DNA of 64,000 bases from a phage. The stretch is from sequence record PV808484.1; one strand, given 5' to 3'. The notes beneath the pieces were generated by a model, which saw only the letters and a list, made by a program, of their open reading frames with translations, was not told the DNA's origin and did no database searches. Positions 3,611 to 41,558 of this stretch are shown here, piece after piece. Position 1 is the stretch's first letter; each line of letters opens with the position of its first letter. Made by a program: the position numbers and the translations under genes.

Positions 3611-4042
3611 TTAGTCAGTGAAAATTACGCTTACATCCTCTTTAGAAAAGAGTTTATGATCTTCACCTTTTGTTTCAAGAGTTTCATACAGGTTAAGAAG
3701 TTCTGAAACATCTTTCTCTACCAGTTTCTTCAATGTTGCAATTTTCTGTTTGCGACTCTTAATACGTTCAGCTACAACCTTACGCTGGTATCCGGCAGTA
3801 CGATAACCTGAGAAAGTTACACCAGTGAGACTTGCAGTTACAGGATCGTAGTGACGTTCAATCTGAAATTTATTAAAAGGTACAGCGTCATCACGAATAA
3901 TCTTACCTCCATTACTTACTTGACGAAGACCAGTAACTTGTTCCAGTCGTGCCATAGAAATCTTTGGAGACAGACCAGAGTCCAGGTTCATACCATTGTT
4001 AATCAGTGCTTTCAGGGTGATTTTGCTGTTCAGTGTACTCAT
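3611..4042 (-). CDS. hypothetical protein
   Basis: 143-aa ORF; GGAGG 8 nt upstream of ATG at 4042; 5' end overlaps 3' end of the methyltransferase gene. Confidence 0.5.
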   Translation of the reverse strand: MSTLNSKITLKALINNGMNLDSGLSPKISMARLEQVTGLRQVSNGGKIIRDDAVPFNKFQIERHYDPVTASLTGVTFSGYRTAGYQRKVVAERIKSRKQKIATLKKLVEKDVSELLNLYETLETKGEDHKLFSKEDVSVIFTD

Positions 4043-4730
4043 TTAGTCGTTCCTCCGCTTGCTTAAAAATATTTACATCGGCTTCACAGCCTAAGTATTC
4101 TCTACCTGTTAAAAGTGCCGCAACTTGTGTTGTTGCACTTCCAGAGAAGAAGTCTAAGACTACATCTCCTTCGTTGGTGTGTATATTAATAAGGTCACAA
4201 AACAAAGTCAAGTGTTTTTGTGTTGGATGAAAACGATCTGCTCCTTGATAGATAGGATACTCAAACACACCCTTATGGTAGGAAGCATTGAAGGTTGGCT
4301 TCGAACCTTTAACACAAACAATAGCCATCTCTTTAGCGTTACTAAGGTAGTTAACACCACTGTTGATGGGTACAGGGTTTGTTTTAATCCATTCGATAGT
4401 ACGGAACATACGAAAACCAAGCGGTTCAAGGATTTCACGTAGCTCCTGGATCTTCCAGATATCATACCAAACTATGCAAGTACCACCTTTTCTAAGCACC
4501 CTGTAGGCTTCTTTGAATACTTCTTTAAAGTAAGGAATATCTACAACATCCCAATCACCGAAGTTGTAAGATACACGGAATCTATCCGTATCTTTTCCAG
4601 TCGGCTCTCCAGATTGAAAATTTGTGTCACGAGAAATAGCATATGGTGGGTCAGTAAGAATCAAATCTACACTATTGCTTTCGAGGGTTTGCAGGTAGTT
4701 TAATGCGGTGTTGTTTACAAATTCGCTCAT
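3999..4730 (-). CDS. DNA methyltransferase, beta-class (N6-adenine or N4-cytosine)
   Basis: 243 aa; DPPY catalytic motif near N-terminus (LILTDPPYAI) and SAM-binding FFSGSATT near C-terminus. Confidence 0.75.
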   Translation of the reverse strand: MSEFVNNTALNYLQTLESNSVDLILTDPPYAISRDTNFQSGEPTGKDTDRFRVSYNFGDWDVVDIPYFKEVFKEAYRVLRKGGTCIVWYDIWKIQELREILEPLGFRMFRTIEWIKTNPVPINSGVNYLSNAKEMAIVCVKGSKPTFNASYHKGVFEYPIYQGADRFHPTQKHLTLFCDLINIHTNEGDVVLDFFSGSATTQVAALLTGREYLGCEADVNIFKQAEERLNEYTEQQNHPESTD

Positions 4731-4740
4731 TATATCTCCT

Positions 4741-4768
4741 TCAAAGAAAAGGAGCCGTTAGGCTCCTT
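4741..4768 (-). terminator. rho-independent terminator
   Basis: AAGGAGCC-GTTA-GGCTCCTT hairpin; U-rich tract on minus-strand transcript. Confidence 0.5.
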
Positions 4769-4790
4769 ATATTCACACAATACTTAACTA

Positions 4791-5738
4791 TTAGAAACAG
4801 TGCAGGAAGTTTCGACCATACTGCAAACCAATAGGAGCAAATGGGATATCATCATCGAAATCTTGAACAACAGGTTCTGGTTCCTTCGGTGCTGGCTCTT
4901 TCTTCTCTACTTTTTTAGTTTCTTTCTTAACTTCTTGTACTGGGGTAGACATTCCACGGATAGCAGCAGCTACTTTATCAGACAAAGCAAGAACTTCACG
5001 AGCAGCTTCAATAATCTCTTCTGCCGTTACAGTTTTACCTGTATGATCACGACAAGCGTTAAGAATTGCGTGTCCAACTGAAGCACCAAGATCATAGTCA
5101 GTCACATCAACGCCACGATCTTTAGCAATTTCTGCTTTCAGAGTAACAGTTGCAGATTGTACCACACCAGCCAAGTCGAAAGCATCACCTTTCACACCAG
5201 CACGTAGAAGCTCCAGAGCGCCATTTACAGCGTGTCCTGTTTCAATCCCTACGGTATCACGTTTTTTGTAGTTAGGCTTGCTACCTTCGTTATTAGATGG
5301 CTTATTTCCACCTTTTGAAGAAGATTGTGCTTGCTGAACACCTTCTGTTGAAAGAACAGTGATTTTACCTTTAGAGGAGTTGTAGTATGTTTTGCCATTC
5401 CATTCGGAAGGTTTAACATCCATAGTTACTTCTACACCTTTTTCGATAGTAATCCACTTATCACCATCTTTAACTTGCAGGTTTTCATGTTCTGGGTGCA
5501 GTTTAACTTCACCTAGGCTAACCCAAACACCTTTATCATCAGCACCAGCACCTTTCTCTTTAATAAGCAGAGATGCTTTGTGAGTTGATTCAATTTTCTT
5601 ATCTGGCTGACCTGCAACCTTAATATAAGAGACTTTCATTTCATCAAACTTATCTAGTTTGACATATTCAACGATACCTTCAGCCCAGAATGCTTCTTTT
5701 TTAGTACGACGGTCGATTTCAGAATTAATTACTGGCAT
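4791..5738 (-). CDS. putative single-stranded DNA-binding protein (SSB-like acidic motif)
   Basis: 315 aa; Gly/Ser-rich linker; DFDDDIPF near C-terminus but followed by 15 extra residues. Confidence 0.45.
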   Translation of the reverse strand: MPVINSEIDRRTKKEAFWAEGIVEYVKLDKFDEMKVSYIKVAGQPDKKIESTHKASLLIKEKGAGADDKGVWVSLGEVKLHPEHENLQVKDGDKWITIEKGVEVTMDVKPSEWNGKTYYNSSKGKITVLSTEGVQQAQSSSKGGNKPSNNEGSKPNYKKRDTVGIETGHAVNGALELLRAGVKGDAFDLAGVVQSATVTLKAEIAKDRGVDVTDYDLGASVGHAILNACRDHTGKTVTAEEIIEAAREVLALSDKVAAAIRGMSTPVQEVKKETKKVEKKEPAPKEPEPVVQDFDDDIPFAPIGLQYGRNFLHCF

Positions 5739-5754
5739 AAATTCTCCTCTATAA

Positions 5755-6153
5755 TTACATTACTTTAACACAAAACTCTCGTAAAAGAGTAGCGTCAGTT
5801 TCTTCCAACAGGTATTTACCAAGACCAATACCAAATCCTATTTCACCACTTTCAAAATGGAGGATTTGTATCTTTTCTCCACCAAGGTTAATTACTTTTG
5901 CTTTTCCAGGATTATCCAAAACATCTCGTATTGTATCCTGTAGTAACATAAGTTCACGTTTTGTGATAGTGGTTTCAGATATCTCTTTGTTTTCTACTCT
6001 CACTGTTAAACGGTTGTATCCACCAAAGAGACATAGTATTTGAATAAAAAAGGTATTATCTTGAGGTTCAACATCTTTTTTAGTTAGCTCAAGACGATTA
6101 GTTTCTCTACTGTAGAACGTCTCGACTAAGATTTTAGAACGATTATCTGTCAT
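5755..6153 (-). CDS. hypothetical protein
   Basis: 132-aa ORF in co-directional block. Confidence 0.5.
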   Translation of the reverse strand: MTDNRSKILVETFYSRETNRLELTKKDVEPQDNTFFIQILCLFGGYNRLTVRVENKEISETTITKRELMLLQDTIRDVLDNPGKAKVINLGGEKIQILHFESGEIGFGIGLGKYLLEETDATLLREFCVKVM

Positions 6154-6196
6154 TCAAGTCCTCATAATAACACACAATTATAATGTTTGTCAACAC

Positions 6197-6811
6197 TTAA
6201 ATTTTAAATTCTTCACTGTTAAATGAATCCAGTGTACGTACTTCTGGTTCTTTGGGAATGAAAACGTCTTTTACAAAGCGGAACATGGGGAAACGTTCTG
6301 CCATTTTACGGACGTGTGCTTCTTTACCTGTGTATCGGTGATTAATAGTACAAATATTAGTTTTCAGTGCAAATTCAAAATCTGGATGATATACATAATT
6401 TTGACCATCCCAGTAACACAAGCAAATAGCTACATCAAAGTTCCATACGATTTCACTGCGTACACCTTCTTCCATGATCATAAAGTTAAACTTAAGATCT
6501 TTATAGTATGCTTCAAATACCCATTTCAAATGTGGTAGTTCGGCATAAGTGTGTTCTGTTTGCTTAGTAAGTTGTTTAACATTACGTGCACCAACACCCA
6601 ACATCAAAAATTTCTCTACTAATACGAGTGTATTGTGGTTAGGCATACGCAAGTAAATGTCAATATCTTGTGCAGGTTTCTCTAATCGCCAATCACGTAC
6701 AGCGCCGCCAGCGACAATTGCAAACGGATCTACCAGTTGGCACATACGTAATACTTCTAAAGCTCGTACTTTTTGATCTTCAATATTCATATTTTCTCCT
6801 ATCGTTTCCAC
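6197..6811 (-). CDS. minimal nucleotidyltransferase (Pol-beta superfamily, CCA-adding/poly(A) polymerase head-like)
   Basis: 204 aa; GGAVRD...DID motif (VAGGAVRDWRLEKPAQDIDIYL). Confidence 0.55.
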   Translation of the reverse strand: METIGENMNIEDQKVRALEVLRMCQLVDPFAIVAGGAVRDWRLEKPAQDIDIYLRMPNHNTLVLVEKFLMLGVGARNVKQLTKQTEHTYAELPHLKWVFEAYYKDLKFNFMIMEEGVRSEIVWNFDVAICLCYWDGQNYVYHPDFEFALKTNICTINHRYTGKEAHVRKMAERFPMFRFVKDVFIPKEPEVRTLDSFNSEEFKI

Positions 6812-7395
6812 TCTTTGTGTTGTTCTACATGCTCAAGCATTTCATTATATAGTGCTTTAAGATGTGGAACAACTCTTTCATCTTCAGTTTCAAAGAATTT
6901 TGTAAGCTGTTCTGCCTTAGCTTTCAACCAGCAAAGATGCGCTTCAATTTCAGTATTAAAACGTCCCAGCGTTATAACACGTCCATCACGTTGAATATGG
7001 GCTTTATACTTTTTACGATCTTTTTCGTAACTACAGCCTACCATAGTTCCATGAGATCTTTTACTTACTCTATAAGCTAAGAACTTGTTAAGATCTCCTG
7101 TTACTAAAAGACAGGTATCGGGAGAGTAAACCCTCCCTCCTATAATATCTTTATCAAGTTCTAAGTTTTCCCAGTTATCCCAAGTTTGTAACCAGGAGTA
7201 GAAATTGGAGAACAACTTCCATTCTTCGCAAACCGTCACCCCATTATAACAAGGATCACGTTCTTGTTGACAAGGGGAGTAACACCTCCCCAACATAGCC
7301 ATCCATTTCATATAATGAGGTGTTAGTTTCCTACTGCCAGGTAGTGTACTCTCACCTTCCAAATCATTAATACCTTCACCATATACTGTAAACAT
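6799..7395 (-). CDS. AP2-domain putative homing endonuclease
   Basis: 198 aa; AAGGAG upstream; AP2-like segment VGCSYEKDRKKYKAHIQRDGRVITLGRFNTEIEAHLCW. Confidence 0.5.
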   Translation of the reverse strand: MFTVYGEGINDLEGESTLPGSRKLTPHYMKWMAMLGRCYSPCQQERDPCYNGVTVCEEWKLFSNFYSWLQTWDNWENLELDKDIIGGRVYSPDTCLLVTGDLNKFLAYRVSKRSHGTMVGCSYEKDRKKYKAHIQRDGRVITLGRFNTEIEAHLCWLKAKAEQLTKFFETEDERVVPHLKALYNEMLEHVEQHKEWKR

Positions 7396-7422: not shown

Positions 7423-10002
7423 TCAATGACAACTAGCCCATGAGTTACCAACATCGTAACCAGCAGTGAGAGGTACATTAAGATTGTAATACTCACCAGC
7501 TTTATTAACAGCGATAGATGCTAATTCTCCAGCACGACTGTAGGCTGTAAACCAACCACCTTTTGGAGACTCATGTACGTTAGCCCAAATCTTGCCAGTA
7601 CGTTTCTCTTCCTCTTCTTTCCAGGCATTAACTTTATCCAAACATTCTTTATCAATTTTCTTTTGTTCATCTGGATCATCAACTTGAGTCCAACCTAAAG
7701 ATTCTTTAGAGAACCATTTAAAATGCACCAAATCACGAGTTACTTCAAGCTGTGCTTCATCGTGATATGCAATCATTTGTTGAACGAATGACTTATTTTT
7801 CCAGTCATCAACAAAAAAGTCAACAGCTAATCCTTCTTCTTCGATAAGATCGTCGTAGATAACCATTGCTCTTTTTGCACAAATAACACCACCACTCTGG
7901 AACAGAGAGTTAAGAATTGCGTGTGCAGATCGTGTAGGTACTTTTCTACCATCAATACCGAGAATGTATTTCTTACCTGTTTTAACCCAAAAATCATGCA
8001 GACGTTCTTTAAGAAGCGCAAGAGGTTTTGCAGCTTCCCAGAAAGCATCGTATACAAGCTGTCCTGTATACATATCACTACCTATAGTTTTTGCTACTTT
8101 TGCAGCTTGAGCACCATAAGTAATACCATACTTAACAGATTTAGCAGGGCTTCGTTCAAACTTACGACCAATAGTGTCAGAAATACGTCGAGCCATCATT
8201 GTATGAACATCATTGGGTTTTTCCAATAATAGAGCATTACAATATTCGTGTGGTTCCTGCTCGTACCGCCAACAGTAGTGTGATTCTATTTTTGCCTCAA
8301 GAGAATCAAAGTCATAACCAATTTGGAAGTATTTTGGAACTTCTACACCAAATAAGTTACGCATTTCATATCCGTATAGAGATGTTACACGTGGAATATT
8401 TGCTACTAACCTATGTTTCATACGAGATGTAGCTGCATCACACGTTGCAGCAGGAGTTGGTATACGACCATCAGCCCTTACTGCTGCCAGATAACCTTTA
8501 TCGTAATCCTCTTCATCTTCTTCCCAATCAGCACCACCCCCTAGAATAGAGTTCCTACGGTGTTTATACGTAAGATACTGCACAATCTGCGTAGCATAAG
8601 GAAACTTTTCACCTAGTGCTTCCAAGTTAGGACAAATATCTTTCTCTTGCCCTTTTGTAAAGGAAGGGTTAGTAAGCACTTTAACACCACGACCTTTAGC
8701 TTTAGCAATACGATCTCTTAGTTTCCATTCCAAAGTTTCTGGTGTGCACTCCAGATGATCACATCTGTCCTGGCAGAAGTTAGATGCTAACGTTTGATCA
8801 ACATAGTCACGAATAGCTTTCTCCATCTGTGCTTCATCTTTCTTAATCTTAGTGCCAGATTTAAGAGTGATATCTTTATCTTTATATTCAGATGGACTCC
8901 AACCTAAACCAACTAACCAGTTTTTAATATGTGTAGTGTCGTCTAAAGTAGCAGGTACTGTAGGATCACAAATAGGTTCTTCTGCTGGAATAGGGAGTTT
9001 AAACTCTTTACCTAATGCAAATAACCACCAACCATCTTCTTTTTGTACAAGTTCACCAGAATGTTTCTCTGCAAACTTTATCATGTTACTTGAAGGTTCA
9101 CCATTCTTTTTAAACTGTAGTTTAGGTGGAATGAATGATTTCAAATAACCTTTAGTAGCAGGTTTAGGAGGTAGCACAGGTTCTGCCTCTAAACGACATG
9201 CTTCCATTCGAGCATCCAGATCACGAATATTATCTTCTGCTTGCTTCATGTTGAAAGCAAAGCCACGGTGCTCTTGACGTGTAATAATATCAGCTACACG
9301 TTGTTCTAAATTAAATGGTTCAGACCACTTATTATAATCACCCCACTCTTCCATTAAATAACGGAACACTGCGGTGTTAGCTTTGTTATCGTAAATACAG
9401 TAATACAGCATATCTGCTGCAAATGTTCTAAACCTTTCGGATTCAGGAATGTTTTTTCTGAAATCAATTTTAACATCCCCTCCAGCTTTCTTAGATAACT
9501 CTGCCAGACTATGACCACCGAAGCGATCAGGGTTTAGTGTCTTACTTAAGATCATAGTATCACAAATTTCAATGTTACTATTACCCCAAGTATTGTACTT
9601 AACACTGTAGTTGAGTTTAAAAAATAATTTAATTGCCAGTAAGTCGAAGTTAATGATGTTGTGTCCAACTACTTTGGTAATTTTATAGTTTGAATTACCT
9701 TTAAATTTACCTGTTCCATTTACAAAATCAGGAAAATCTTTAAGAGGGAAATGGGTATATTCTAAATGCTCATATTCCTCCAGTCGGTATTCATACTTTC
9801 CGTCAGTCTCAACATACGGACGACCATCGAAAAGATATTTATCACCATCATGGAAAGCAATAATCTCTCCAGTATCATGACTTTCGCACACAATACAGTG
9901 CATTGCAAAACTATCTTTTAAACGATATGGACTTGCCAAGTAATCTACACTTTCGTCATTAAGCAAGTTGTTACTTTCAATGTCGAAAGTAAAAGCTCCC
10001 AT
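7423..10002 (-). CDS. DNA polymerase, family A, with 3'-5' exonuclease domain
   Basis: 859 aa; N-terminal exo motif (FTFDIESNNL); Pol A motif B-like KSVKYGITYGAQAAK; strong RBS AAGGAGGG. Confidence 0.85.
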   Translation of the reverse strand: MGAFTFDIESNNLLNDESVDYLASPYRLKDSFAMHCIVCESHDTGEIIAFHDGDKYLFDGRPYVETDGKYEYRLEEYEHLEYTHFPLKDFPDFVNGTGKFKGNSNYKITKVVGHNIINFDLLAIKLFFKLNYSVKYNTWGNSNIEICDTMILSKTLNPDRFGGHSLAELSKKAGGDVKIDFRKNIPESERFRTFAADMLYYCIYDNKANTAVFRYLMEEWGDYNKWSEPFNLEQRVADIITRQEHRGFAFNMKQAEDNIRDLDARMEACRLEAEPVLPPKPATKGYLKSFIPPKLQFKKNGEPSSNMIKFAEKHSGELVQKEDGWWLFALGKEFKLPIPAEEPICDPTVPATLDDTTHIKNWLVGLGWSPSEYKDKDITLKSGTKIKKDEAQMEKAIRDYVDQTLASNFCQDRCDHLECTPETLEWKLRDRIAKAKGRGVKVLTNPSFTKGQEKDICPNLEALGEKFPYATQIVQYLTYKHRRNSILGGGADWEEDEEDYDKGYLAAVRADGRIPTPAATCDAATSRMKHRLVANIPRVTSLYGYEMRNLFGVEVPKYFQIGYDFDSLEAKIESHYCWRYEQEPHEYCNALLLEKPNDVHTMMARRISDTIGRKFERSPAKSVKYGITYGAQAAKVAKTIGSDMYTGQLVYDAFWEAAKPLALLKERLHDFWVKTGKKYILGIDGRKVPTRSAHAILNSLFQSGGVICAKRAMVIYDDLIEEEGLAVDFFVDDWKNKSFVQQMIAYHDEAQLEVTRDLVHFKWFSKESLGWTQVDDPDEQKKIDKECLDKVNAWKEEEEKRTGKIWANVHESPKGGWFTAYSRAGELASIAVNKAGEYYNLNVPLTAGYDVGNSWASCH

Positions 10003-10497: not shown

Positions 10498-12270
10498 TTA
10501 ATAAGAACCAGCAGCGATGTTTTCTGGGTTACTTGTGTATTGATCGTAATCGTGAAGTGTAGCTGTTTTAATCTCATAGAAGAAACTACCTGCTGCACCA
10601 GTCTCGGAGAACTCACGGTTCTTTAGAATGTAGCAATATGTGCGGTTACGTTCCATAGGATCTTCAGCTTGTTTATCACGCTCCAGCGCAATTGTGATAC
10701 CAGCACCTTTAGCAAGGAAGCTACTACCCATTGCATCATCTTCTACAATATGTTCATTACTATTGTTAGAAGACTTTTTAACGTGTGAAATTACAACAAT
10801 GGTTATTGCATACTCTTTCATAATGCGTTTCAGCCACGTCGCAAGTTCCTCTTGTTGTGACACGTCCATACCAGAAAGCAAATCAGAATAAGGGTCGATA
10901 ACAAGAATGGTTACTCCGAAATAAATAATCATTTCCAGAACCTTCTCTTTAATCACATCTACGTTAGCTCCACGATCATCACAAACATAGAAACGTGGTG
11001 TTCCATCTTCTCGTTCGTAAAAATCACGAATCTTTTCTTCATTATCTTTTAAAATCTTTTCCTTCTCTTCTTTTGTTTTACGGTGAAGAGGGATATGCAA
11101 GAATGAAGACAGTAAGTTACGAGAATACTTCTTATACGTTGCCTCCAAAGATAAAATACCAAGAGTATGTTCTGGGTGTGCAAGAATAATGTGTTTCGTA
11201 ATCTCGTTAACCAACAGTGTCTTACCGATACTTGTTTTTGCAAGTATAACAGTAATTTCTTCTTCTACCAAGCCTCCACCTAACATATTAGAAGCAACAC
11301 GCATGAATGGAGGAAGGGTGATCATTTTAGCTTCCAGGCATTCCAAGGCTGCTTCATACAGTACGTTAGAAGCATAAACACCAGCAGGTGTGTACAGTTT
11401 AGCTTTGAAAAAGCGATCAATAAAATGATCAATTTTTCCTTCTACTAATGCCTGGTTAGGATCTTTAACATCCGTTAGTTCCATCACGTAAACTTTATTA
11501 CGTGGTAAGATTTTAACACATTTCTCAACTGCTGCACGTCCAGCTTCATCATTATCCATACATAGAACAATCTTTTTAAATTGGTCTAAGAATTTATAAC
11601 GATGTTGAAGCTGCTTATGCAGAGATGTTTCGCCACAAGTACCAGATACTACAGCAGGAACAGGATATTTACCACCCTTGTTATAATCTTTTAGCATCTG
11701 TGTTGCAGCCAGCATATCGTGTTCACCACCAACGATTAGAATAGTACCGCTGTGGTTACGATATTTAAACTCCCCAAAAAGATCACAATCCTTTCCTGTT
11801 TCACCGATAGGATGTGAGAAATCTTTTGGATCGATACGTTGTTTATACCCAGCAATATTGTAATCTTTAGTTGTAGGGTATAGTGTTGAAATTACTTCGC
11901 CAGTAGCTTCATCGTACATATAACGTACACCGAAAGGCTTAGAGATATCTTCACGAATACCGCGATAACCTTTTGGATTAGTTCCAGTGCTGGCTTTTAG
12001 TTTATCATGTACTTCTGGATTAAACTCACTACCCAAGATATCCTCCTCTTCAATTTCTTCGCCGTGTGCATTTAACCATTTTTGATCAGGGATAGTAAAG
12101 CCACAAGAAAAACAATGTGCGCCTCGATGGTCTTCATCGGCATCTAAGCCATATACCATCAAATTGTTTTGTGATCGATCACGCCCTCCTTTCATACAAC
12201 GAGGACACCCAGTATGTCCTTCTTGACTTAGATCAATGTTATACCCATATTTATTTACAACATAAGACAC
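10498..12270 (-). CDS. primase-helicase (T7 gp4-like)
   Basis: 590 aa; N-terminal zinc-binding cysteines (CPRC...CFSCGF); TOPRIM-like middle; DnaB-type Walker A (AKTSIGKT). Confidence 0.8.
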   Translation of the reverse strand: MSYVVNKYGYNIDLSQEGHTGCPRCMKGGRDRSQNNLMVYGLDADEDHRGAHCFSCGFTIPDQKWLNAHGEEIEEEDILGSEFNPEVHDKLKASTGTNPKGYRGIREDISKPFGVRYMYDEATGEVISTLYPTTKDYNIAGYKQRIDPKDFSHPIGETGKDCDLFGEFKYRNHSGTILIVGGEHDMLAATQMLKDYNKGGKYPVPAVVSGTCGETSLHKQLQHRYKFLDQFKKIVLCMDNDEAGRAAVEKCVKILPRNKVYVMELTDVKDPNQALVEGKIDHFIDRFFKAKLYTPAGVYASNVLYEAALECLEAKMITLPPFMRVASNMLGGGLVEEEITVILAKTSIGKTLLVNEITKHIILAHPEHTLGILSLEATYKKYSRNLLSSFLHIPLHRKTKEEKEKILKDNEEKIRDFYEREDGTPRFYVCDDRGANVDVIKEKVLEMIIYFGVTILVIDPYSDLLSGMDVSQQEELATWLKRIMKEYAITIVVISHVKKSSNNSNEHIVEDDAMGSSFLAKGAGITIALERDKQAEDPMERNRTYCYILKNREFSETGAAGSFFYEIKTATLHDYDQYTSNPENIAAGSY

Positions 12271-23108: not shown

Positions 23109-23340
23109 TTGTAACCCTCTCATTTAAAGTCTCAACACAATTTTTAAAATCCCTAGAGAAACAATACATCTGTTCTCCGTTCCTGTTGATAGTAATTGTA
23201 TGGTTATCAATATATGTTGTCAAGATAAAAATCAAACAAAACAACCCTAAAGCAAAACAAATATTTTCAAACAGAATCCAAAGAACACGTAAAACTACCA
23301 TCAGATCACCTCAACAAAGCCCCCGAAGGGGCTTAATGAA

Positions 23341-24318
23341 TTAAGCAACAGTCTGGTCTTCTTTTTCAGGGAAGATTAAACTTGCAATAACACCCAGCCC
23401 CAGAGTACCTAACACAATATACATACTGATCGTCGGATCAATGTGTGCTGGCAGGAAACTCACTTTTGCGTGCAGAGTTTCTGCAAACGGGTGATACATC
23501 AGTTTTACACCCACAAATACCAGGACTACGATAACTGCTTTCTCCAGATGAACCAAATATTTCAGTGCAACACTAAGGACAAAGAACAGAGCACGTAGAC
23601 CTAAAATTGCACACAGCATTGAAGAAAATACAAGCAGAGGTTCTTGTGTCACTGCAATTACTGCTGGAACAGAGTCTACTGCAAAGATTACGTCAACCAT
23701 TTCCATTACAAACACACAAACCAGAGCCGGAGTTGCTACACGAACACCATTTTTGATTGTGAAGAACTTCTCACCATCCATCTGATCAGATACAGGGAAC
23801 AGCTTACGAACAATGCGAGTAGCCCAGTGTTTAGAGTAATCAACTTCTGCGTCATTATCTCCAGCGAATACCATTTTAGCTGCACAGAAAAGGATGACCG
23901 CACCGAAGAAGATATTAACATACCAGCCCAAACTCAACAAGTAAGTGCCTACTGCTACAAACACACCTCGGAAGACAATCGCACCTGCAATACCCCAAAG
24001 TAGAATCTTGTGTTGCAAGTGTGTGCTTTTAATACCAAAACTTGCGAATACTGCCACAAATACTACTAAGTTATCTACAGAAAGAGATTTCTCCAACACA
24101 TACCCACTCAAGAACAAGCTCGCAAAATCAGCACCGTGTTGGAAGTATACAAAACCATAGTAGGCTAATGATACCCCAATCCAGAAAATTGACCAGCCAA
24201 TTGCAGATTTAAATGAAATTTCTTTGTTTTCTCTGTGTCCAAAGAAATCAATACAAATTGACAAGACTAAAATACCCACTAAAACAACCACATCAATAAT
24301 TGGGAAACCCAGTTGCAT
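23341..24318 (-). CDS. TerC-family integral membrane protein
   Basis: 325 aa, multi-pass hydrophobic; LSVDNLVVF and AVDSVPAV motifs typical of TerC/Alx. Confidence 0.7.
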   Translation of the reverse strand: MQLGFPIIDVVVLVGILVLSICIDFFGHRENKEISFKSAIGWSIFWIGVSLAYYGFVYFQHGADFASLFLSGYVLEKSLSVDNLVVFVAVFASFGIKSTHLQHKILLWGIAGAIVFRGVFVAVGTYLLSLGWYVNIFFGAVILFCAAKMVFAGDNDAEVDYSKHWATRIVRKLFPVSDQMDGEKFFTIKNGVRVATPALVCVFVMEMVDVIFAVDSVPAVIAVTQEPLLVFSSMLCAILGLRALFFVLSVALKYLVHLEKAVIVVLVFVGVKLMYHPFAETLHAKVSFLPAHIDPTISMYIVLGTLGLGVIASLIFPEKEDQTVA

Positions 24319-40784: not shown

Positions 40785-40902
40785 TTGCTTTTCTCCTTTC
40801 CTTTGGTATGCGCTAATCTTAACAAAATAAAAACGTATGTCAATACTTGATTTGAAATTAGTTTCTGGTACTCTGTGTGTATCGTAACAAAAGAGGTTAG
40901 AT
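40785..40902. promoter_or_regulatory. divergent intergenic region at the strand switch
   Basis: 118-bp AT-rich gap separating first leftward and first rightward gene; no motifs assigned. Confidence 0.4.
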
Positions 40903-41193
40903 ATGAACATCACACTAGCAACTAAGAATATTACAGAAACTTTCGATGGTTTTGGCATTATTATTGCTGTTCATGGGCATAACGAAAAATGGTTAGCCTC
41001 TTTTGAAGAGGACAAAGAACGCAATGTACGTTTGAATGCACCAATCAAAGTTTTACACCAGGTAGGTGAGAATAAGAAACAATGGAGATCATACAAAGAG
41101 TGGAACATTACAAACGAATTAATACACAAACTTGACAAAGTGATAAACATGTTCGACAATGCACCAAGCAGTGCAAAACGTGTTTTACTATAA
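40903..41193 (+). CDS. hypothetical protein
   Basis: 96-aa ORF. Confidence 0.5.
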   Translation: MNITLATKNITETFDGFGIIIAVHGHNEKWLASFEEDKERNVRLNAPIKVLHQVGENKKQWRSYKEWNITNELIHKLDKVINMFDNAPSSAKRVLL

Positions 41194-41204
41194 AGGAGAG
41201 TGAT

Positions 41205-41558
41205 ATGAAAATTGTACACGATGAAATTCAATTTGAAGAGAGTGATCTTCTTGATCTGGATGTGACACTAAGTAAACTGATCTACAACGCACTTTCTGCA
41301 TATCGTGCAAAAGTGATAGCCACAAACAATGTTAAAATTCCTAGTGGGTTACTTCGTCGGATGTACCCACACGCTAAAGGTGACTATCTACCTTATATGG
41401 AAGAACGAGCAGCAGAACACTGGTTAGAAATTCTTGAAAAAATGGAGTCCTCTTTTAAAGATTCAACTCCACCTGAAGAAGTTAATGAAAAACAACGGCA
41501 AGAGCGTTTAGAAGGTCGTATTTTGTTTGCTAAGTATTTCCATAATTTGTGGAGCTAA
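41205..41558 (+). CDS. hypothetical protein
   Basis: 117 aa; AAGGAGAG upstream. Confidence 0.5.
   Translation: MKIVHDEIQFEESDLLDLDVTLSKLIYNALSAYRAKVIATNNVKIPSGLLRRMYPHAKGDYLPYMEERAAEHWLEILEKMESSFKDSTPPEEVNEKQRQERLEGRILFAKYFHNLWS

Follow-up and report, generated by a model that had tools for sequence, protein, structure and literature searches.

Comparative analysis of an SSB-like phage protein and its relatives shows the 15 residues that follow its SSB-type acidic tip to behave as a portable, horizontally mobile tail module, found on several unrelated ssDNA-handling proteins. Judged by its codons, this extension is under purifying selection at the peptide level, and comparison of related phages shows that it has been gained and lost repeatedly through replacement of the 3′ end of the gene. 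On balance, we consider it probable that tip and extension form a bipartite docking tail, in which docking to the usual host partners is blocked and the protein is retargeted to one partner, most likely a host-encoded one.

An SSB-like protein with an internal acidic tip

The window (the whole 64,000-nucleotide stretch of phage DNA analysed here) was assigned by tblastn to Justusliebigvirus, the phi92-like E. coli myoviruses of the Stephanstirmvirinae. The 315-aa protein of interest matches the PHROG 4477 profile over its full length (E 1.9e-101, 340.9 bits). A Pfam scan of the protein returned no family at E up to 1 and no SSB OB-fold domain, and a PDB sequence search with it matched nothing. 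An AlphaFold2 model was built on 77 homologues; the same architecture is present in 98 homologues. The gene and the parts of its product are the following.

4791–5738, minus strand: gene for the 315-aa SSB-like protein, PHROG 4477 family (open reading frame list and family profile match)
5349–5738, minus strand: residues 1–130, OB-fold beta domain, the presumed ssDNA-binding part (confident in AlphaFold2)
4959–5252, minus strand: residues 163–260, four-helix domain (AlphaFold2, pLDDT above 90)
4863–4958, minus strand: residues 261–292, Lys/Pro/Glu-rich disordered linker (pLDDT 51–59, no secondary structure)
4839–4862, minus strand: residues 293–300, the host-SSB-like acidic tip DFDDDIPF (from the translation; matches the enterobacterial SSB terminus)
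4794–4838, minus strand: residues 301–315, the 15-residue extension APIGLQYGRNFLHCF (conserved on many scaffolds)

The N-terminal domain is predicted to adopt an OB fold of the ssDNA-binding type and is separated by a disordered stretch (residues 131–160) from four helices (163–179, 186–208, 215–230, and 239–260). A fold search with this helical domain recovered generic helical repeats only; the domain possibly serves oligomerisation. The whole tail (residues 261–315) is modelled without secondary structure at pLDDT 50–59. The acidic tip thus lies at the end of a disordered linker (residues 261–300, pLDDT 51–59), and the extension (pLDDT 50–54) is undocked on the protein, although such low values would be compatible with a possible transient fold-back. 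The gene product is best explained as the SSB-like replication protein of the phage, with ssDNA binding presumed. A replication cluster surrounds the gene, with a family A polymerase (7423–10002) and a Toprim/DnaB-type primase-helicase (10498–12195). The interval between the SSB operon and the polymerase gene holds two further genes (6799–7395 and 6197–6790), a 198-aa ORF without a Pfam match and a nucleotidyltransferase (phrog_1614). A possible counterpart of the 198-aa ORF, with a faint AP2 match, occurs in the primase-helicase/polymerase flank of the related locus L065.

The protein ends in ...EPVVQ-DFDDDIPF-APIGLQYGRNFLHCF, and its TAA stop (4793..4791) is directly followed by an in-frame TAG. 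Translation thus bears out the first-pass annotation, which had placed the motif internally with 15 more residues behind it. The tip is an exact match to the last eight residues of enterobacterial SSB (...NEPPMDFDDDIPF in the alignment), an identity that should lie far beyond chance for a protein of 315 residues. The suggestion that the protein mimics host SSB therefore holds for the tip, which is identical to the enterobacterial SSB end, and finds no support beyond it. Among the 77 homologues, P299 and F300 are invariant and D293, D295, and D297 are at least 90% conserved. Residues 293–300 provide the acidic residues and the I-P-F of an SSB-Ct docking motif; the terminal Phe with its free alpha-carboxylate is replaced by an internal one with 15 residues after it, as it is in all Justusliebigvirus records listed. 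We agree with the earlier reading that this conflicts with the usual need for a C-terminal Phe, since F300 is not terminal. The two forms of the tail can be represented by a peptide pair, the tip-only WMDFDDDIPF-COOH and its extended counterpart DFDDDIPFAPIGLQYGRNFLHCF-COOH. No second copy of the motif was found in a real ORF of the 64-kb window, and no acidic PF tail was seen on its other ORFs.

Most homologues stop at DDDIPF, and the same annotation had allowed that the true stop lies there and was hidden by a sequence error. We regard this as having a negligible chance of being correct. Phages sequenced independently of one another, among them muut, VEcB, Nernie, EmilieFrey, and cardinal, encode the protein with 100% identity, which excludes a read or assembly error. 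More than 50 independent genomes have this 315-aa protein, all of the best 40 tblastn records cover residues 1–315, and dozens of unrelated contigs have the conserved extension. Differences within the extension between the window and Mt1B1_P17 are synonymous only.

Distribution and evolution of the extension

About three-quarters of the 98 homologues stop exactly at ...DDDIPF, while some 20 go on for 14–17 residues with the consensus [AS]-P-[IVL]-G-L-Q-Y-x-x-x-hydrophobic..., summarised for the extension as A-P-[IV]-G-L-Q-[YF]-x2-3-hydrophobic-hydrophobic-x-small-hydrophobic. Orthologues that end at DDDIPF had been named as grounds for rejecting the extension; they do exist in this majority, but the extension is no artefact, and comparison of the family indicates that extended and tip-only genes are real alleles that interconvert repeatedly. 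When the core domains are placed on a neighbour-joining tree, extended and tip-only members lie intermingled at all depths, and Fitch parsimony has to assume 15 changes to account for the 20 extended ones among 77 sequences. Cores that share only 36–64% identity bear the same extension, which points to exchange of the 3′ end of the gene. Simple loss of a stop codon was ruled out, since the closest tip-only relative, P0003 (89% identity in the A1 alignment), has a stop and a terminator right after the tip, retains no remnant of the extension downstream, and has a linker completely unlike that of the window protein in sequence. Near relatives also differ in allele, as seen for rV5 ORF214 (extended) and Bas53_0086 (tip-only), Mt1B1_P17 (extended) and phAPEC8 (tip-only), and Seu621 (extended) and K54_rec4 (tip-only). 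Because near-identical phages (rV5/Bas53 and Mt1B1_P17/phAPEC8) have either form, the extension appears dispensable, at least in the laboratory. The tip is intact in extended alleles, which argues that it is still in use.

Selection on the peptide is evident from a comparison of the window and Mt1B1_P17 tails, in which 8 of 24 codons differ, all synonymously; the 15 extension codons account for six synonymous and no non-synonymous changes. These changes are non-synonymous in an overlapping +1 endonuclease frame, and the two phages cease to be homologous exactly at the SSB stop codon. Four unrelated contexts compared with one another show third-position variation in the A, P, I/V, G, L, and Q codons. 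In a set of 57 distinct tail sequences at the DNA level, the conserved positions A, P, I, G, L, Q, and Y draw on the full range of synonymous codons, Leu on all six of its own; this set was found with a degenerate pattern, so that its amino-acid conservation is partly by construction, and a homology-selected set shows the same conservation. The synonymous variation rules out that the extension is an element acting at the DNA level.

In Stephanstirmvirinae and Vequintavirinae, genes for HNH/EndoVII-like homing endonucleases have a hot spot at the 3′ end of the SSB-like gene. The features at and around this end are listed below, with the endonuclease genes of the other loci in their own coordinates.

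4784–4819, minus strand: start of a vestigial homing-endonuclease ORF in the +1 frame, with its ATG at 4819 and 11 codons before a stop (comparison with Mt1B1_P17)
L063 2544–3167; L066 4405–4899; L069 3691–4116; L070 3385–3816; window 4784–4819: HNH/EndoVII-like homing-endonuclease sites at the 3′ end of the SSB-like gene
4749–4768, minus strand: terminator-like hairpin right after the SSB stop (8-bp stem, 5 GC pairs, T-rich tail)
3611–4730, minus strand: N6/N4 DNA methyltransferase (3999–4730, Pfam PF01555) and an overlapping phrog_20244 ORF (3611–4042, PHROGs)
6164–6193, minus strand: sigma-70-like promoter TTGACA-18-TATTAT (11/12, a consensus match only)

The promoter-like sequence is located upstream of a two-gene unit made up of ORF 5755–6153 and the SSB gene. 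The methyltransferase and the phrog_20244 ORF sit between the SSB gene and a convergent tail-fibre gene, where they take the place of a full endonuclease ORF, and both are missing at this position in tip-only relatives (loci L065 and L067).

The proximity of these genes raises the question of whether the extension is a functionless passenger, arising where the SSB frame runs on into the 5′ part of an endonuclease gene inserted there, and merely tolerated. In rV5 and Mt1B1_P17, the HNH/EndoVII-like gene takes its start ATG from within the extension, in the Q-Y-G codons; in Mt1B1_P17 this is the ATG of the 11-codon remnant in the window, and it opens a 164-aa HNH endonuclease ORF overlapping the SSB 3′ end. 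That remnant, the overlaps, and the extra genes behind extended alleles in three pairs are what such an origin would leave. It is nonetheless very improbable. The extension of Seu621 has no inserted gene behind it, tip-only alleles are followed by an endonuclease in K54_rec4 and nepoznato, and most extended canonical SSBs have no endonuclease nearby; moreover, the substitutions described above, synonymous in the SSB frame and non-synonymous in the endonuclease frame, contradict it. A strict linkage of the extension to a downstream insert or endonuclease was rejected, with three pairs that fit and three cases that contradict. Endonuclease-adjacent alleles have altered tips (DFDDQIPF in K54_rec4 and DFDDNIPF in nepoznato, both tip-only, and DFCDDIPF in rV5), which suggests the tip-coding DNA as the cleavage target. 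We infer that the tip-coding DNA would be a homing site and that the extension is not a by-product of the endonucleases, which probably drive tail swapping by 3′-end replacement.

The extension is found on at least six unrelated scaffolds, PHROG 4477 proteins among them. Canonical OB-fold SSBs carry it in the lambdoid phage mEp235, whose protein matches host SSB from end to end in the alignment and continues for 15 further residues, and in about 35 IMG/VR loci with SSBs like that of mEp235. It also occurs on phrog_9002, phrog_2544/32668, and phrog_3284 proteins, on a Vibrio K443-type SSB, and on the 179-aa P0098. Among replication enzymes, the T7 gp4-like primase-helicase of the Klebsiella phages P8734/KpS8/BIS47 (Mydovirus) ends in ...GPDDDTPF-APIGLQYAKHAIYVI, so that both the SSB-like protein and the primase-helicase of Mydovirus are extended. 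Vequintavirinae encode gp4-like primase-helicases with SSB-like acidic tips (L004 1501–3579, L005 1501–3513, and L003 1018–3081), and those of rV5 and 4MG are tip-only, with ends of the ...GFEDDETPF and ...DFDNDTPF types. The primase-helicase of the window phage itself (10498–12195) ends in ...NIAAGSY, without an acidic tip.

Searches with the motif show that the extension always stands directly behind an acidic ...IPF tip. A first scan required a Dx-PF tip; a scan for F-A-P-I-G-L-Q-Y gave 44 stretches, 39 of them already in the first scan, and the five new ones comprise four with an acidic ...IPF tip and one chance match. The window protein carries A-P-[IVL]-G-L-[QPM]-[YF] right after ...IPF, followed by 7–10 residues and a hydrophobic end, as in the consensus drawn from homology-selected sequences together with pattern and profile searches. 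The string DDDIPFAPIGLQ[Y] is present in about 230 of 50,697 phage records, and an exhaustive profile search returned 52 cluster representatives among 1.84 billion. Matches in bacterial genomes are prophage-like SSBs of Vibrio, Pseudoalteromonas, Oceanisphaera, Glaciecola, and Providencia. Several records (MG065639, MG065645, MG065656, MG065689, and others) are labelled ‘Campylobacter phage’, a host label that is probably wrong because they encode proteins with 100% identity to proteins of E. coli phages from Justusliebigvirus and Vequintavirus.

Two length subtypes can be distinguished. Tails with seven residues after QY (PALLNCM-like) belong to phages of Vibrio, Aeromonas, and marine Gammaproteobacteria, and those with eight (GRNFLHCF, xRHAIYxI, GKSRIYAL) to Enterobacterales phages, including tails on canonical SSBs. 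Subtype tracks host group and not scaffold, a correlation that could arise from separate gene pools instead of from a host partner.

Function of the tail and its candidate partner

In E. coli SSB-Ct complexes, the binding pockets need the free carboxylate of the terminal Phe. In the bipartite docking tail that we favour, D-D-D-I-P-F would be followed by A-P-[IV]-G-L-Q-[YF], two to three residues, and hydrophobic-hydrophobic-x-small-hydrophobic-COOH. The Phe carboxylate would become a peptide bond, and the tail could no longer dock in the SSB-Ct pockets of host proteins such as ExoI, RecQ, PriA, and chi. The phage protein would thereby leave the general pool of host SSB partners, and the hydrophobic/aromatic element together with the retained tip would steer the tail to a single partner. 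Retargeting, rather than simple silencing, would be the outcome for the phage SSB and, in Mydovirus, for the primase-helicase as well.

The first-pass annotation had offered masking or regulation of the motif as one reading. Masking may play a part, but it is incomplete as an account; the extension is itself a conserved, portable motif on several unrelated proteins, which speaks for a binding role of its own. In its pure form, the extension would be a cap that only buries the Phe carboxylate, so that the phage protein would neither recruit nor titrate SSB-interacting host proteins such as ExoI/SbcB, RecQ, and RecJ, or would escape defences that sense phage SSB-like proteins. The tip-only orthologue Bas52_0087 triggers DRT10, which is functionally linked to SbcB, and the patchy, accessory-like distribution with its 15 switches would suit such a role, as would the occurrence of either form in near-identical phages. 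We nevertheless think a pure cap improbable: it has no need for an A-P-I-G-L-Q-Y kept invariant by purifying selection across very divergent DNA or for a fixed length of 14–17 residues, and a silenced DDDIPF should decay in extended lineages, where no decay is seen.

The far end of the extension suggests another function, as a degradation or unfoldase tag (for ClpX, ClpA, Lon, or FtsH) or as a pro-peptide clipped after Phe300. Non-polar C-termini destabilise E. coli proteins by a classical rule. The last five residues are mostly non-polar (FLHCF, IYAL, LLNCM), usually with a small-aliphatic end; tails such as LYALA, MYALYA, and IYAL resemble the YALAA end of the ssrA tag, and the would-be scissile F|A bond is flanked by conserved residues. 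The pattern of conservation makes this unlikely, being best in the proximal part (APIGLQY), while the extreme end varies in sequence and by 0–2 residues, unlike terminal degrons. A degron could go on any protein, yet the motif occurs exclusively on proteins that have an SSB tip. There is no protease common to all the phages compared, and we know of no host endoprotease with F|A-type specificity.

Two other readings of the tail were tried and rejected. Beta-clamp motifs (QL[SD]LF or QLxLxL) have an invariant Gln and hydrophobic residues at positions 2, 4, and 5 or 6; in a beta-clamp/PIP-box reading, QYGRNF would on inspection have Arg at position 4, and its Gln is P, M, or A in natural variants. 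Intramolecular docking was set aside with the AlphaFold2 tail disordered, one fixed docking domain being also unlikely given the unrelated scaffolds.

All ORFs of a complete Justusliebigvirus genome (the window plus the rest of muut), mEp235, and K443 were compared by phmmer for a partner encoded by the phages. Only the SSB tail was similar in all three, and K443 and Justusliebigvirus additionally have baseplate and tail proteins in common. With nothing else shared by such different phages, a common phage partner seems unlikely and a host-encoded one is favoured, with the caveat that remote or non-homologous phage partners would escape phmmer.

A weak lead is RdgC. Of 48 extended SSB loci, 16 have an RdgC-family gene (PF04381) no more than four genes away, as against one of 73 tip-only controls (Fisher p 7.6e-7), a statistic that is inflated because the loci represent only about four lineages. 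When phage RdgC loci were collected with a four-sequence RdgC alignment, 10 of the 11 adjacent SSBs with acidic ...IPF tails proved to be extended, including the divergent APLFKQYRAMHLAC. The window phage encodes an RdgC-family protein outside the window (in muut, Pfam E 2.3e-19), and the corresponding entry is given here.

23238–24119 and 40902–41555 of muut (locus L078, outside the window): genes listed with the RdgC-family entry

The muut annotation cites an RdgC homologue in phAPEC8, whose SSB is tip-only; mEp235 and K443 are without RdgC, and no report of RdgC binding to SSB was found in the literature consulted. RdgC is accordingly put forward as a hypothetical partner of the tail. The muut annotation also has an HslV-family peptidase and a DprA-like protein.

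Several other observations were made at these loci. In prophage-like contigs (L006–L061 and L201–L221, e.g. L201 6001–6891), an extended canonical SSB is paired with an RdgC-family gene, often with a C-terminal domain like the FtsK gamma winged helix (...RKFRIGYNRAARLVEQLEA.GIV..PGHNGAREVL); the same FtsK-gamma-like domain is joined to a different N-terminal region in L049. Among tip-only control loci from IMG/VR (L081–L160, with MDFDDDIPF SSBs), 47 of 73 adjoin one protein family, against only 11 of 48 extended loci.

A broader reading, which we offer as tentative and doubtful when all its parts are taken jointly, combines these strands. Tip and extension would form a so far unrecognised class of SSB-tail ligand, able to bind without a free C-terminal carboxylate and used by phages of Gammaproteobacteria as a portable address tag on SSBs and primase-helicases; the tag would lead to one host or phage hub protein, for which RdgC is the sole candidate with statistical support, and homing endonucleases directed at the tip-coding DNA would toggle it.

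Bacterial genome maintenance has its central hub in the C-terminal tip of SSB, for which a free terminal Phe is held to be essential. A selected extension behind this tip in hundreds of phage genomes, on replication and recombination proteins unrelated to one another, would mean either a second way of reading the tip or its deliberate hiding from host enzymes and defences. The identity of the partner would show how phages keep their own ssDNA transactions apart from those of the host. Knowing this partner could also account for the triggering of defences such as DRT10 by certain phage SSB-like proteins, and could yield a short peptide tag, transferable between proteins, for use in recombineering or in studies of SSB interaction networks.

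Comparison with known systems

The protein family and the SSB tip are already known; for the conserved, mobile extension and for its occurrence on a primase-helicase there seems to be no earlier account, as the searchable literature yielded no description of the extension sequence or of an extended SSB tip in phages. The tail of the window protein resembles the E. coli SSB-Ct (...MDFDDDIPF-COOH) in having the same eight residues, which close a disordered linker that follows an OB-fold domain. It differs in the 15 conserved residues past the Phe, which leave no free tip carboxylate, and in an OB domain that is not a Pfam SSB domain.

In T7, the acidic C-terminal tails of gp2.5 (SSB) and gp4 (primase-helicase) are interchangeable and bind T7 DNA polymerase. 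A parallel is seen in Vequintavirinae, where the SSB-like protein and a gp4-like primase-helicase both end in an acidic ...PF tail, and the Vequintavirinae and Mydovirus phages compared encode a family A polymerase. T7 tails, however, end at the aromatic residue, the primase-helicase of the window has no such tail, and the extension is also found in phages without a polymerase gene. The window protein itself has neither sequence nor fold similarity to T7 gp2.5-like SSBs.

A characterized relative is Bas52_0087, a two-OB version within the PHROG 4477 family, which was identified as the SSB-like trigger of the DRT10 reverse-transcriptase defence (bioRxiv 10.64898/2026.04.29.721553). Its SSB-like architecture was independently predicted and the FDDDIPF motif noted in the same preprint, where the extension goes unmentioned. 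The mutated residues D252 and Y351 of Bas52_0087 are conserved in the Bas53 and rV5 orthologues, and the Bas52 escape mutations map to the region equivalent to the four-helix domain of the window protein. Unlike the window protein, Bas52_0087 appears to be tip-only; the tails of Bas53 and JeffSchatz end in AFDDDIPF. Recruitment of a specific partner by the C-terminal tail of a phage SSB has a precedent in phage HK620, whose SSB brings in its cognate annealase Sak4 through the six terminal residues NDYPPF (PMC5928155). The HK620 tail is of the same kind in this respect, but differs in its sequence and in being terminal, without an extension.
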